24,000 nt of DNA, taken from assembly GCA_903899825.1 (NCBI GenBank), contig CAIUKU010000178.1, positions 2,961-26,960 on the forward strand, read 5' to 3'. The position numbers and the translations under genes are program-made. The DNA comes from an uncultured Bacteroidales bacterium. GTDB lineage: Bacteria > Bacteroidota > Bacteroidia > Bacteroidales > JACABE01. The notes under the pieces are model-generated. The model was not told where the DNA came from. It saw only the letters and a program-made list of their open reading frames with translations, and ran no database searches. Below are positions 4,889 through 11,645 of the stretch, in pieces; within the stretch, counting starts at the first letter, position 1; every line of letters starts with the position of its first letter.

Positions 4889-4896
4889 TATGTTTG
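4889..4896 (+). promoter_or_regulatory. Bacteroidota -7 promoter box (TATGTTTG) for arsR
   Basis: TAnnTTTG match 20 nt upstream of the ATG at 4916. It lies inside the longer ORF variant starting at 4883, which argues for the 4916 start. Confidence 0.5.
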
Positions 4897-4915
4897 CGTC
4901 ATTAAACATTATAAA

Positions 4916-5251
4916 ATGACAAAAGATATTTCAATTGAATATACTACAGATCAACAGCTAGTTGCAAATTATGCAAGGGTGTTGTCACATCCAGCACGAA
5001 TAGCAATAATTCAACTTTTAGCAGAAAAAAAAGAAATCCGCACAGGAAATATTTCCGATTTTCTGCCTTTAAGCAGGACTACTGTTTCGCAACATTTGAA
5101 AGAATTGAAAGAAATTGGTATAATTAATGGAACCATTGATGGATTGAAAATTCATTATTGTTTAAATCCAATAAAACTCAACGAAATCAGAATTCTTTTC
5201 AATCAGCTATTTGATCAATCCATCAGCAACTTTATATGCAACTGCGATTAA
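4916..5251 (+). CDS. arsR: ArsR/SmtB-family metalloregulator
   Basis: Winged-HTH core LSHPARIAIIQLL...ISDFLPLSRTTVSQHLKELKEIGII. It lacks the R773-type CVC in helix 3. Its only cysteines are HYC and the C-terminal ICNCD. Confidence 0.85.
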   Translation: MTKDISIEYTTDQQLVANYARVLSHPARIAIIQLLAEKKEIRTGNISDFLPLSRTTVSQHLKELKEIGIINGTIDGLKIHYCLNPIKLNEIRILFNQLFDQSISNFICNCD

Positions 5252-5278
5252 TTATTCACTCATTTAAATATATACAAA

Positions 5279-6007
5279 ATGAAAAAAATCACAATGTTTA
5301 TTTTATGCACAATGTTTGTAATGTCAAACATATTTGCACAGGGAGCAAAATCAGAAATCGGAAAAGCTCAGAAATCAGGTAAGACTACCTTTTTGATCGT
5401 AACAGACAAAACGGCAAAAGGAACGGATGCACTTATAAAGATTGCAGAAAATGCAAAGAAAAAGGCGAAAAATACAGTAGTAATCAAATTAGATCGGGAT
5501 GATAAAGCCAATGCGGCTTTGATTGCAAAATACAGACTTGCCGGTGCTCCATTGCCAATGGTTTTGGTTGTTGCAACAACAGATGTGGTTACCGGTGCTC
5601 TTTCTGCTTCAGATGCAACAATCGAAAAGCTAATTGCCGATATTCCTTCCAAAAACCAGGCTGATGTTTTATTGGGTTTTGAAAACGGTAAAGCAGCCCT
5701 TATTATCTGCGGAAAGAAAAATGCAAAAGATAAAGATGCTATAATGAACGAATGTAAAACAGCCGCAGCAAGTCTTGGAAATAAAGCCAACGTTGTTTTT
5801 ATTGATATTGATAGTAAAGATGAAGCTAATTTTATTGCGTTGTTAAATCCTGATAAAACTAAAACCACTGTTTTGATTTTTAATGGAAAAGGTCAGTATA
5901 CTGGTGTCCATGAATCAAAAGCAAAATCAACCGATCTTGTAAAAACGGTAAATAAAAAAGTAGGTGGTTGCAGTCCGGGAAGTTGTGGGAGTGGTAAAAA
6001 ATGCTAA
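5279..6007 (+). CDS. Secreted Lys/Ala-rich protein, tandem thioredoxin-like repeats without CxxC, Cys-rich tail
   Basis: Signal peptide (MKKITMFILCTMFVMSNIFAQ). Two internally similar segments (TTFLIVTDKTAKG...VVIKLDRDD...PLPMVLVV and AALIICGKKNAKD...VVFIDIDSKD...TTVLIFNGKG). C-terminal GGCSPGSCGSGKKC. The fold assignment is pattern-based only. Confidence 0.5.
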   Translation: MKKITMFILCTMFVMSNIFAQGAKSEIGKAQKSGKTTFLIVTDKTAKGTDALIKIAENAKKKAKNTVVIKLDRDDKANAALIAKYRLAGAPLPMVLVVATTDVVTGALSASDATIEKLIADIPSKNQADVLLGFENGKAALIICGKKNAKDKDAIMNECKTAAASLGNKANVVFIDIDSKDEANFIALLNPDKTKTTVLIFNGKGQYTGVHESKAKSTDLVKTVNKKVGGCSPGSCGSGKKC

Positions 6008-6019
6008 TAAACGCTTTCT

Positions 6020-7237
6020 ATGAACTTATTTAAACTAGTCTGGATAGAACTCTGGAATAAAAAAACGCAGCTTATATCCAGTTTGATGGCGATAGTAATT
6101 GGAATCGGTGTAATTGTGGGTATCCGTACCATCAATGTATATTCCGAAAAAGCGGTAGCTGTTAAACTCGATAATCTCGGTGCCAATATTCTTGTATTGC
6201 CTCAAGCTGCCAGCATTGATGATTATTACACATCCGACATAGATGCTCCAACCATCCCCATGGAATATGTGGAGAAAATTTTAACTTCTGAGATTCAAGG
6301 TGTTGATAATTTATCGCCCAAACTTACCAGACGTATTGAAATTGGTGGTAAGAAATATGTGCTAACGGGTATTCAACCGAAGAACGAAATGGCATCCAAA
6401 CCACTCTGGCAAAATACCGGCTTTGGCAAGGAATTGCAGGCAAGTTGTGCTCCTACTACAGAAGCAAATACAAGCCATGGTTATGAAGACGAAAAACTGA
6501 AACGCAAAGGAGTGGATAGTCTGGATTATTCTGAATGTTTGCTGGGTACTCAGGCAGCAAAAAGCCTTCATTTGAAAGTAAAAGATAAATTAAAGATACA
6601 GGGAACGGAACTTACTGTTGCAAAATTATTGGATGAAACAGGCACCGTGGATGATGACCGGATATTTGTGAATCTGAAAGCTGCACAGGAAATATTAGGT
6701 ATCAAAGATCAGATCAGCGCCATCGAAATCATGGGTTGCTGTAATGCTATTTCGGATGGTCTGCTGGGAAAACTGAGAAATATATTACCCGATACAAGGA
6801 TTACGACCATAGGTCAGATTGTATCCACCCAGATAGAAACCAATAAAATGATGAAAAAAACTTCCATTATTTTTCTGATTATCATTCTTTTTGTAGGCAG
6901 TATTTCTATCGGTAATTATATGTGGGCCAATGTGAATGAACGTAAAAAAGAAATTGGTATTTTACGTATGATTGGATGCTATAAATCTGAAATATACAAG
7001 ATATTGTTGCTGAAAGCCTGTATTTTAGGATTGATAGGAGGGATACTGGGTTATGCTTTAGGTACATTTGCTGCTTATTATATGGGACCTGTTTTTGCAC
7101 AAATAGAGGTGGCAGCCATCCCTTTGTTTTTAGTATGGGCAGTTTTAATATCTATCGGAATTTCAATTACAGGTTCTTTGCTACCTGCTTATTTTGCAGC
7201 CAGATTCGAACCATTTTCAAACATGCAGGAGGAATAA
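6020..7237 (+). CDS. ABC transporter permease, FtsX/MacB type
   Basis: N-terminal TM helix, a periplasmic domain of about 250 aa, then three C-terminal TM helices with the FtsX-like ILRMIGCYKSEIYKILLLKA segment. The periplasmic domain contains MGCCNAIS. Confidence 0.8.
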   Translation: MNLFKLVWIELWNKKTQLISSLMAIVIGIGVIVGIRTINVYSEKAVAVKLDNLGANILVLPQAASIDDYYTSDIDAPTIPMEYVEKILTSEIQGVDNLSPKLTRRIEIGGKKYVLTGIQPKNEMASKPLWQNTGFGKELQASCAPTTEANTSHGYEDEKLKRKGVDSLDYSECLLGTQAAKSLHLKVKDKLKIQGTELTVAKLLDETGTVDDDRIFVNLKAAQEILGIKDQISAIEIMGCCNAISDGLLGKLRNILPDTRITTIGQIVSTQIETNKMMKKTSIIFLIIILFVGSISIGNYMWANVNERKKEIGILRMIGCYKSEIYKILLLKACILGLIGGILGYALGTFAAYYMGPVFAQIEVAAIPLFLVWAVLISIGISITGSLLPAYFAARFEPFSNMQEE

Positions 7238-10385: not shown

Positions 10386-10391
10386 AAAAAC

Positions 10392-10691
10392 ATGAATGGT
10401 TTAACTTATCTTAAGAATGTAATTACACTACAGCTGGATACGGTGAAATGTAACGGCTGCGGTATGTGCACAATTGTTTGTCCACATGAAGTGTTTTTAA
10501 TAATAGATAAAAAATCTTTTATTAAAAATAAAGATTATTGCATGGAATGCGGAGCCTGTGCGAAAAATTGTGCAGCCAATGCAATAACTGTAAAGACGGG
10601 TGTAGGATGTGCTGCAGGTATCATAAATGGTTTGATAAATGGAACTGAGCCAAATTGCGATTGTTCTGGTTCAGGCAATAGTTGTTGTTAA
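10392..10691 (+). CDS. hgcB: HgcB, 2x[4Fe-4S] ferredoxin partner of HgcA
   Basis: 99 aa. Two CX2CX2CX3C clusters (CNGCGMCTIVC, CMECGACAKNC), conserved GVGCAAGII, and a Cys-rich tail NCDCSGSGNSCC ending in the vicinal CC. Starts 6 nt after hgcA. Confidence 0.9.
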   Translation: MNGLTYLKNVITLQLDTVKCNGCGMCTIVCPHEVFLIIDKKSFIKNKDYCMECGACAKNCAANAITVKTGVGCAAGIINGLINGTEPNCDCSGSGNSCC

Positions 10692-10736
10692 TATTAATAT
10701 GAAAACAAGATTAAATTTCTAAGGCCATTTAACTTT

Positions 10737-10770
10737 ATGGATTTTTCAGTCTATATTTACTGAAATCCAT
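10737..10770. repeat. Inverted repeat / hairpin between hgcB and arsM
   Basis: ATGGATTTTTCAGT - ctatattt - ACTGAAATCCAT gives 12 complementary positions with a 2-nt T bulge. No U-tract follows. Confidence 0.6.
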
Positions 10771-10811
10771 TAACACTTCGGGTTGAAAAAGAATTTTAAA
10801 TAATAAACAAT

Positions 10812-11645
10812 ATGGAAAATAACGAATTAAAAAATATAGTAAAAGAAAAATATGGCGAAATAGCCATGCAAAGCAAAACAGAAAACGAAAACAGCTGTTG
10901 CGGTGTGGGTTCTTCCTGCTGTTCGGGTGTTGATTATACCATTTTCAGCGAAAGCTATGACAAACTTCAGGGATACAACCCTGATGCAGATTTGGGCTTG
11001 GGTTGTGGCATTCCTACTGAATTTGCCCTTATCAAAAAAGGAGATACGGTTGTAGACCTGGGTTCAGGTGCCGGCAACGATTGTTTTGTGGCCAGAGCTT
11101 TGGTAGGTGAAACAGGTAAAGTGATAGGTGTGGATTTTACTGAAACCATGATTGAAAAAGCCAGGCTGAACGCAGAGAAATTAGGCTTTAACAATGTAGA
11201 GTTTCGCTATGGAGATATCGAAAAAATGCCACTCACGGCCAATAAAGCCGATGTGGTAATCAGCAATTGTGTGTTGAATCTGGTGCCCGATAAAAAGCAA
11301 GCTTTTGATGAAATATACAGAATTTTAAAAATGAACGGACATTTTTCGATTTCAGATGTTGTATTGGAAGGCAAATTGCCGGCAAAACTCGAACAGGCTG
11401 CCGAAATGTATGCAGGTTGTGTATCGGGAGCTGTTCAGAAACAAGAATATCTGGATATTATAAAGTCCTGTGGCTTTAAGAATATCAGTGTTCAGAAAGA
11501 AAAGAAAATTACGATTCCGGATGAAATGCTGTTGAATTATATAGCTGCTGATGAATTAGAGGTACTGAAGCAGAAAAATACAGGCATTTACAGCATCACT
11601 GTATATGCCGAAAAACCTGATTGCAATTGCGATGGCCATTGCTGA
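10812..11645 (+). CDS. arsM: Arsenite S-adenosylmethionine methyltransferase
   Basis: SAM motif VVDLGSGAGNDCF, DVVISNCVLNLVPDK, YAGCVSGA, N-terminal SCCGVGSSCCSG and C-terminal CNCDGHC. This is the usual ArsM cysteine layout. Confidence 0.9.
   Translation: MENNELKNIVKEKYGEIAMQSKTENENSCCGVGSSCCSGVDYTIFSESYDKLQGYNPDADLGLGCGIPTEFALIKKGDTVVDLGSGAGNDCFVARALVGETGKVIGVDFTETMIEKARLNAEKLGFNNVEFRYGDIEKMPLTANKADVVISNCVLNLVPDKKQAFDEIYRILKMNGHFSISDVVLEGKLPAKLEQAAEMYAGCVSGAVQKQEYLDIIKSCGFKNISVQKEKKITIPDEMLLNYIAADELEVLKQKNTGIYSITVYAEKPDCNCDGHC

Follow-up and report, generated by a model that had tools for sequence, protein, structure and literature searches.

hgcAB as the final cistrons of an ArsR-headed arsenic-resistance gene string with a putative conserved operator in an uncultured Bacteroidales bacterium

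The stretch of DNA considered here, designated the window, comprises 24,000 nucleotides (nt) of contig CAIUKU010000178.1 from an uncultured Bacteroidales bacterium (assembly GCA_903899825.1) and is AT-rich, with about 34% G+C. It carries the mercury-methylation gene pair hgcAB, whose members are the final cistrons of a tightly packed, ArsR-headed arsenic-resistance string. The string consists of nine open reading frames (ORFs) on the + strand, where the other window genes described below also lie, and extends from 4916 to 10691 in the order arsR, trxL, ABC permease, ABC ATPase, arsC, cys94, CcdA-like gene, hgcA and hgcB. The recomputed intergenic spacings are 27, 12, 1, 4, -17, -1, 5 and 6 nt, and a further 120 nt separate hgcB from arsM. 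These values reproduce exactly those of an earlier, sequence-only reading of the same DNA, whose statement that arsR and an arsC of the low-molecular-weight protein tyrosine phosphatase (LMW-PTP) type are mixed with hgcAB also stands, given that ArsR, HgcA and HgcB pass curated cut-offs and that the ArsC triad is intact.

The first gene, arsR (4916-5251), encodes a predicted repressor of the ArsR/SmtB family with 111 residues (62.7 bits with NF033788, cut-off 55), whose winged-helix domain is matched by Pfam HTH_20 and HTH_5. An ATG at 4883 was ruled out as its start, since it falls within the conserved operator described below and the orthologues begin downstream; its position inside the operator leaves 4916 as the true start, and the apparent N-terminal extensions of ArsR (MSYVC...) correspond to a conserved DNA element and not to protein. 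The canonical CVCxxC As(III) site of the R773 type is absent from the window ArsR, in which helix alpha-3 has no Cys (EKKEIRTGNISD) and the cysteines are Cys82, Cys108 and Cys110. The Cys of an HYC/NYC motif and a C-terminal Cys are kept in all 12 aligned orthologues, and a single alpha-3 Cys in 10 of the 12, being missing in the window and in locus L012. These two proteins carry an additional C-terminal Cys, so that three cysteines per monomer are preserved by relocation, a pattern that fits an S3 site of the As(III) type without in itself proving the ligand.

The product of trxL (5279-6007) is a thioredoxin-like protein (Pfam Thioredoxin_6, 26.4 bits, slightly below the cut-off of 27). Its hydrophobic N-terminal leader looks by eye like a signal peptide, and its C-terminal tail is rich in cysteine (C231, C236 and C242). 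Next come an FtsX/MacB-type ABC permease (6020-7237; Pfam FtsX 65.7 bits, MacB_PCD 38.5 bits) and a LolD/MacB-type ABC ATPase (7239-7925; Pfam ABC_tran 108 bits), the latter with LolD and DarD as best NCBIfam matches, both under their cut-offs. The arsC gene (7930-8379; Pfam LMWPc) codes for a predicted thioredoxin-coupled arsenate reductase of the LMW-PTP type. It scores 136.3 bits with the ArsC equivalog model TIGR02691, below the cut-off of 174.3, and aligns to the solved ArsC structures 1jl3 (E = 7e-32) and 1ljl (E = 5e-28), an alignment in which Cys10 of the CX5R P-loop and the Cys82/Cys89 redox relay are all conserved.

The gene cys94 (8363-8647) shares its first 17 nt with arsC and its last nt with the CcdA-like gene. 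It encodes a single-pass membrane protein of 94 residues, with Cys clusters flanking its single transmembrane segment (TM) at both ends (CGC..CC / TM / C..C..C..CC), for which Pfam and NCBIfam profile searches returned no family match. The CcdA-like gene (8647-9348) specifies a six-helix membrane protein of 233 residues related to CcdA/DsbD_TM (Pfam DsbD_TM, 30.5 bits against 27.1), in which vicinal cysteines occur as CGC in TM1 (C33, C35) and CC in TM4 (C153, C154). Whereas the CcdA/DsbD thiol-disulfide transporters have one redox Cys in each of TM1 and TM4, the window protein presents CxC and CC instead, and at least 90% of 32 sequences keep the motifs CxCN (TM1) and CC(N/S)P (TM4). Identity with ArsG, a protein of DsbD_2 fold annotated as an organoarsenical permease, was considered and rejected, as the CcdA-like protein does not match the ArsG model and locus L010 has both proteins.

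The 343-residue corrinoid protein encoded by hgcA (9354-10385) covers the full length of model NF040863 (417 bits, cut-off 275) and contains the cap helix NVWCAAGK at residues 95-102 (9636-9659), with the cobalt-ligating Cys98, followed by a C-terminal membrane domain with hydrophobic segments from about residue 230 to residue 343. Six nt after hgcA, hgcB (10392-10691; NF040864, 117.5 bits, cut-off 99) encodes a ferredoxin of the 2x[4Fe-4S] type with two CX2CX2CX3C motifs, at residues 20 and 50, together with Cys73 and a C-terminal Cys98-Cys99 pair. The predicted HgcAB therefore bears every sequence hallmark of a working mercury methylase. The exact HgcA sequence occurs only on short metagenome contigs, and its closest relatives are all in metagenome-assembled genomes (MAGs) of Bacteroidales.

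In front of the string lies a promoter with an overlapping putative ArsR operator (4881-4904, + strand), TAATGTCG-[TATGTTTG]-CGTCATTA, where the Bacteroidetes-type -7 box TATGTTTG (4889-4896) constitutes the 8-nt spacer of an inverted repeat and a TTG (4867-4869) is found 19 nt upstream of the box. It is the sole mismatch-free match to ATGNCG-N8-CGNCAT within the 24 kb, and we infer that ArsR would be the protein binding to this palindrome. The sequence-only reading had looked for the box alone, as TAnnTTTG, and had placed it nowhere in the string except before arsR; this was mistaken, because four more + strand matches lie within the string, at 7063, 7561, 7730 and 8751. With 40 occurrences in the window against 40.2 expected from shuffles, TAnnTTTG is at chance level, and on these two grounds it was discarded as a promoter test on its own. 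A scan with sigma-70 and terminator consensus models was set aside as well, the promoter model not being valid for Bacteroidota; terminator matches inside genes numbered 10, near the shuffle expectation (mean 5.8, standard deviation 2.4).

The core 12-mer of the site, CGTATNTTTGCG (CGTAT[ATG]TTTGCG; 4887-4898 in the window), is present in 20 of 81 loci, at 21 sites in total; by our own estimate, chance would give about 0.5 sites in 1.16 Mb. All but one of the 21 are + strand sites situated 15-35 nt upstream of whichever gene opens an ars/hgc string (arsR, arsE or trxL). Additional operator sites were recovered by a weight-matrix scan in L003, L005, L010, L012 and L042, and among loci retrieved independently, through the CcdA-like protein, the site precedes the string heads in L206/207, L208 and L211. 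Altogether, the window and more than 25 related species have the putative operator at the string head, the conserved palindrome occurring only at such heads. Its arms vary with lineage (GACG/CGTC, GTCG/CGAC, TTCG/CGAA and ATCG/CGAT) while being symmetric within each site, and one sub-clade possesses a second full, perfect palindrome, ACGTATTATTACGT, located 14 nt upstream. In L016 the genes are divided between two strings, hgcA-hgcB-arsE-arsF-arsG-rhodanese-arsD-arsA and trxL-ABC-arsR-arsC-acr3, and a separate copy of the double site stands before each. An operator-like ATCG-N8-CGAT palindrome was also noticed in an Ignavibacteriota MAG (L063, position 9802), about 200 nt upstream of hgcA.

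The distribution of the arrangement was surveyed by scanning one genome per species with HgcA, which produced 80 loci onto which homologues of all window genes were mapped. The Bacteroidales-type HgcA clade was delimited at 54% identity or more, and upstream counts use loci with at least 3 kb of upstream sequence. In 29 of 30 species of this clade, versus 6 of 30 in other clades, the 8 kb before hgcA hold an ars gene of the same orientation; the adjacency is thus not unique to this genome. Among the 30 Bacteroidales-clade upstream regions, arsR is found in 26, arsC in 20 and the CcdA-like gene in 17, and acr3 occurs within 1.5 kb downstream in 16 of 29 loci of the clade, versus none of 31 in the others. 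The usual pattern is arsR ... arsC-(cys94-ccdA)-hgcA-hgcB-acr3, in which gene order shuffles and linkage stays. The trxL/ABC module, which recurs in L012, L016, L019, L024, L025, L162, L196 and L206/207, lies before arsR in L016, L019, L024 and L025 but behind it in L012 and L206/207, this last locus (GCA_964626855.1) having essentially the same architecture as the window. The strings of the relatives also hold ArsE, ArsF, ArsG, ArsP, rhodanese, ArsD and ArsA. Away from this clade, a Planctomycetia MAG (L049, 14096-15970) has a MacB-type permease and ATPase pair, with 44-46% identity, a few kb downstream of hgcAB.

The CcdA-like proteins form a tight family of 233 residues, with 323 matches in a database search and members on NCBI, JGI and ENA contigs of up to 34 kb. 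They always co-occur with cys94, 30 homologues of which directly precede CcdA-like genes with their Cys motifs conserved, and in the window the pair overlaps or abuts arsC and hgcA. Of seven independent contexts inspected, six place the pair directly before hgcAB, two of these (L209 and L210) without nearby ars genes. Within the string, cys94, the CcdA-like gene, hgcA and hgcB make up a conserved four-gene core. The normally tight ccdA-hgcA junction can be broken, since in L210 a gene with a Fic/RhuM domain (6709-7686) is inserted there. The seventh context, in the JGI contigs L204 (7716-11351) and L205, has arsR, the Cys-rich gene and the CcdA-like gene followed by ArsM (334 residues), with no hgcAB; ArsF, ArsF, ArsG and an ArsE::ArsM fusion (347 residues) come next, so that two ArsM-type methyltransferases occur in this operon, the second joined to an ArsE domain of thioredoxin-like type.

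The Hg(II) transporters of mer operons, MerT, MerC and MerF, are small membrane proteins that move thiophilic metal species by means of vicinal Cys pairs. The CcdA-like protein, with CxC and CC in two helices, resembles them by motif and context, and no homology is claimed. Based on this analogy and on the annotation of the DsbD-fold ArsG, the vicinal cysteines of the cys94 product and the CcdA-like protein suggest that the pair may pass a thiol-bound metal or metalloid to or from HgcAB. A search for literature linking hgcA with ccdA found none, and the papers listed by a broader one on DsbD and cytochrome c biogenesis contain no mention of hgcA, both searches covering a library with few subscription journals.

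Downstream of the string, the 120-nt gap folds at -18.3 kcal/mol (z = -2.5) and contains a hairpin (10737-10770), ATGGATTTTTCAGT-8-ACTGAAATCCAT, with a stem of 12-14 bp and no T-run behind it. As the sequence-only reading had reported, an exact TAnnTTTG box is absent from the gap (10692-10811); two 7-of-8 matches are present, one of which, TATATTTA (10752-10759), is in the hairpin loop. The gene that follows, arsM (10812-11645), encodes a predicted arsenite methyltransferase dependent on S-adenosylmethionine (NF008823, 350.8 bits, cut-off 263), with cysteine pairs at 29/30 and 36/37 plus C65, C153 and C203, matched only by eye to the characterised arsenic-binding cysteines. Orthologues with 63-66% identity are situated between arsC and cys94 in L018, L024, L028 and L034.

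While arsM does come right after the string, as had been proposed, the same cannot be said of acr3 (12453-13535; arsenite efflux permease, TIGR00832, 436 bits, cut-off 282.8), which starts 807 nt past arsM. The interval houses two copies of a structured direct repeat (D1) of about 150 nt, with CACAGAG-like repeats and 76% identity over a 68-nt core, each forming a long hairpin (GGCTGT...ACAGCC) followed by a T-run. Copy 1 (11658-11822), GGCTGTTTCAAAA...TTTTGAGACAGCC with a T-rich tail, folds at -45.9 kcal/mol (z = -3.2), and none of 200 shuffles is equally stable; it is terminator-like and likely marks the 3' end of the transcription unit. Copy 2 (12088-12244), which includes inverted repeat I1 and ends in T8 (12237-12244), is also terminator-like, and the segment holding it (12047-12452) folds with z = -4.8. 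Between the copies, a Cys-rich ORF of 66 residues (11846-12046), SCCGASTSCC...GGCGCGCNC, has an N-terminal Cys cluster resembling the N-terminus of ArsM (SCCGVGSSCC); family searches gave no match and the 80 loci no homologue, and its status as a real gene is uncertain. In relatives acr3 trails hgcB by 13-82 nt, for which reason arsM, the repeats and the small ORF look like an insertion between hgcB and acr3. In L016, a gene for a four-helix-bundle ('23S rRNA IVS') protein occupies a comparable spot, between arsC and acr3, and by analogy the repeats may be remnants or relatives of elements accompanying such genes.

No operator precedes arsM or acr3, even allowing up to 3 mismatches to the core and up to 2 to the palindrome. 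Upstream of acr3 there are two identical 13-nt palindromes, ACCGCTAAGCGGT (12337-12349 and 12387-12399), 50 nt apart, the first nested within a larger hairpin, GATTGGCTT...AAGCCAATC. They were rejected as a conserved regulator site, being absent from all 211 fetched loci, and could be the binding site of a different regulator of acr3.

From position 1 to 13535 all genes are on the + strand and all concern toxic anions or metalloids, and the window probably carries, by its gene content, a composite island of resistance to arsenic and toxic anions. The first part of the island (32-2324) holds genes for an ArsP-family permease truncated at the window edge, for a protein with a DGC domain, for a rhodanese and for a fusion of ArsE to thioredoxin. 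This set resembles the genes upstream of arsR in L206/L207 as well as the ArsP-ArsE-DGC operon of Pseudodesulfovibrio mercurii ND132, and no regulator gene for it lies in the window. An outer-membrane protein gene separates it from a fluoride riboswitch (3828-3890; 45.7 bits with Rfam RF01734, whose gathering score is 34), downstream of which crcB (3918-4295) is paired with a DUF190 gene (4298-4666). The riboswitch-crcB-DUF190 unit is in this way wedged between an organoarsenical-type set and the arsR string, on the same strand throughout; because it closes the upstream unit, the arsR string would open a new transcription unit. An Rfam search of the repeat elements and gaps retrieved nothing besides this riboswitch. 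Downstream of the island, on the + strand, two membrane methyltransferase-like genes (18849-19322 and 21826-22602; PEMT/ICMT family, DUF1295/steroid-reductase-like) have as neighbours genes for a DegV/Dak2 fatty-acid kinase fusion and for a peroxiredoxin of the AhpC/TSA type. The window also encodes a protein with a type-IX-secretion sorting tail.

Tight or overlapping gene spacing, the single conserved palindrome at the head of the string and the separate copy of the site acquired by the L016 hgcAB string together argue that hgcAB lies within an ArsR-headed transcription unit, a reading that we consider likely from the sequence. The operon suggested by the sequence-only reading is consequently upheld as probable, with comparative evidence now behind it. 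According to the proposed mechanism, the three-Cys ArsR would bind the 4881-4904 palindrome as a dimer and block the promoter, until Cys82, Cys108 and Cys110 capture As(III) or a comparable thiophilic metalloid and the repressor is released. A single mRNA would then run to hgcB, probably read through the 120-nt gap into arsM, and most likely end at the terminator-like repeat at 11658-11822. Common control of arsM and hgcAB, also claimed earlier, agrees with the location of arsM inside the string in four relatives; in the window it would depend on that read-through, as arsM has no operator, and it can be called plausible. Co-control of acr3 with hgcAB in this genome is doubtful, given that an apparent insertion of arsM, the two repeats and the small ORF has parted it from hgcB, and acr3 is probably transcribed as a separate unit.

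Several observations weigh against this reading. The window has one of the two palindromes of the best-conserved sub-clade, with one arm mismatched, and the boxes at 7063, 7561, 7730 and 8751 could be internal promoters. The symmetry of the arms, in itself evidence for the operator (76 of 110 positions, versus 59.6 on permutation, with 0 of 20,000 permutations reaching the observed value), is a figure that overstates independence and does not amount to a true probability, because the sites are phylogenetically related. In a metagenome scan with the 14 specified bases of the operator core, 114 of 120 matches had no ars gene and some resembled generic Bacteroidetes promoters, only the 6 that also carried the upstream palindrome being ars loci; as the core includes the generic -7 box, part of its conservation may reflect promoter strength and shared ancestry. 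Finally, L209 and L210 keep cys-ccdA-hgcAB without a nearby arsR, and the window ArsR does not have the canonical CVC site in alpha-3, which makes As(III) a putative effector.

Among known systems, the closest is arsR2-hgcA-hgcB of ND132, in which an ArsR/SmtB gene is likewise found on the same strand upstream of hgcAB. In Desulfovibrio/Pseudodesulfovibrio such a gene is co-transcribed with hgcAB (Goni-Urriza 2020; Gionfriddo 2022, bioRxiv, and 2023, AEM), and in ND132 ArsR2 controls hgcAB and responds to arsenic and to S-adenosylhomocysteine (SAH) (Gionfriddo 2022/2023); a tie between arsenic and the function or evolution of HgcAB was already proposed for that organism. There, co-transcription and arsenic-responsive control have been demonstrated experimentally. 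The architectures differ. ND132 arsR2 is immediately upstream of hgcA, in a unit outside any ars operon and in a strain without ArsM, and its product has a four-Cys motif; in the window six genes intervene between arsR and hgcA, the string is embedded among ars genes with arsM and acr3 downstream, and ArsR has three cysteines at other positions. The window string plausibly works like its ND132 counterpart in spite of these differences.

The sequence-only reading had cited ArsR-like regulators beside hgcAB for deltaproteobacteria, which is correct but too narrow, as they have also been reported in Bacteroidetes together with co-localised arsenic genes. According to Gionfriddo (Table S4), ArsR-family genes accompany hgcAB in Bacteroidetes including Paludibacter jiangxiensis, with arsC, arsB and arsM co-localised, and McDaniel et al. 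(2020, Fig. 6) display hgcAB neighbourhoods in MAGs with acr3, arsC, arsM and arsR. In lake metatranscriptomes (Peterson group, 2025), hgcA was reported to be less expressed where an arsR-like gene accompanied it. These neighbourhoods are of the same type and phylum as the window; the papers report co-occurrence, and their accessible parts do not describe a shared operator, near-universality within a clade, the Cys-rich/CcdA-like pair or the Trx-like/MacB ABC module.

Classical arsRBC and arsRDABC operons place the repressor gene first or early and an inverted-repeat operator over the promoter, as in the window. The arsenate reductase, arsenite efflux and methyltransferase functions of such operons and of the ArsP/ArsEFG modules are also present in the window, and ArsP, ArsE/F/G, ArsD and ArsA occur in the same strings of its relatives. 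What sets the window string apart from classical ars operons is hgcAB, together with an ABC transporter whose Trx-like partner is predicted to be secreted and a CcdA-like protein that is not ArsG; its ArsR, moreover, does not have the CVC site of the R773 type.

Of the alternatives to arsenic control, the one that survives best accepts the same operon and assigns it another signal, namely Hg(II), Cd(II), Sb(III), methylarsenite, persulfide/sulfide or SAH, as part of a general response to soft metals or reactive sulfur. The missing CVC site would be in keeping with it, as would the weak, sub-threshold similarity of ArsR to the BigR, CmtR and TsoR models and the richness of the strings in thiol and sulfur proteins (rhodanese, Trx-like, CcdA-like and ArsE); moreover, ND132 ArsR2 responded to SAH too, and its authors could not exclude other metals or metalloids. 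However, the operator-headed strings consistently carry Acr3, ArsM, ArsD, ArsA and ArsG, each above its curated cut-off, and three cysteines per monomer are the usual number of As(III) ligands, an argument made likewise in the ND132 ArsR2 paper. A different signal is possible, if somewhat unlikely.

It could also be thought that hgcAB and cys94-ccdA are passengers of a mobile or recombination-prone arsenic island, transcribed from an internal promoter independent of arsenic, in which case their association with ars genes would reflect co-inheritance and not co-regulation. Horizontal transfer is known in hgcAB phylogeny, and insertions are frequent at the locus (the window repeats, the L210 Fic gene and the four-helix-bundle genes of L016). 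The exact TAnnTTTG boxes inside the string would offer candidate promoters, but they are at chance frequency, and at all four junctions from arsC to hgcB the start and stop codons overlap or are at most 6 nt apart. Likewise, L209 and L210 do have cys-ccdA-hgcAB with no arsR or ars genes nearby; against this, in 29 of 30 species the linkage has held although the order of the genes was extensively reshuffled, and when hgcAB was split from arsR in L016 it gained a copy of the operator pair instead of a different promoter. Simple passenger linkage thus appears unlikely.

Leaving regulation by ArsR in place, one may go further and picture cys94, the CcdA-like protein and HgcAB as an ArsR-controlled, four-part methylation and trafficking module for a thiophilic metalloid, in which the membrane pair would hand over the substrate or remove the product, HgcAB would parallel ArsM, as the slot in L204/L205 might suggest, and As(III) or another soft metalloid, not Hg(II), would be the native substrate; in this complete form the proposal seems quite unlikely. 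A native arsenic function of HgcAB, which the sequence-only reading had considered compatible with its observations and which the literature already contains as a hypothesis, is speculative. According to the corresponding rival, the native activity of HgcAB in these bacteria would be the methylation of arsenic or another soft metalloid, in a corrinoid-dependent parallel to ArsM, and mercury methylation would be a side reaction. This view could draw on the presence of hgcAB within ars operons in 29 of 30 species, on the occupation by ArsM, in place of hgcAB, of the slot behind arsR-cys-ccdA in L204/L205, on the four loci where ArsM directly precedes cys94-ccdA-hgcAB and on the lack of Hg(II)-dependent hgcA regulation in the literature, but it is quite unlikely as well, because ND132, a strain with hgcAB but without arsM, formed neither mono- nor dimethylarsenicals and suffered no significant loss of arsenic resistance when hgcAB function was lost, the window already encodes a complete ArsM, HgcA and HgcB retain all Hg-methylation residues, and a substrate cannot be assigned from gene position alone.

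In summary, the link between arsenic and hgcAB is already published (Gionfriddo 2022/23; McDaniel 2020), and the present locus is a new, well-resolved example of it. In the literature searched, descriptions were not found of the near-universal embedding of hgcAB in the Bacteroidales clade, of the palindromic operator around the -7 box, of the operator duplication in L016, of the cys94/CcdA-like pair or of the Trx-like/MacB ABC module. The native function of hgcAB and the control of its expression are long-standing questions in mercury biogeochemistry, to which the locus and its relatives contribute testable items, that is, a defined operator sequence, a compact regulator and two previously unremarked partner proteins. 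Gene abundance poorly predicts methylmercury production, and Bacteroidetes were the top transcribers of hgcA at the fen sites of a thawing-permafrost gradient. If hgcAB is governed by an arsenic-type repressor throughout the clade, the methylation capacity at such sites may depend not on mercury but on arsenic or a related metalloid.

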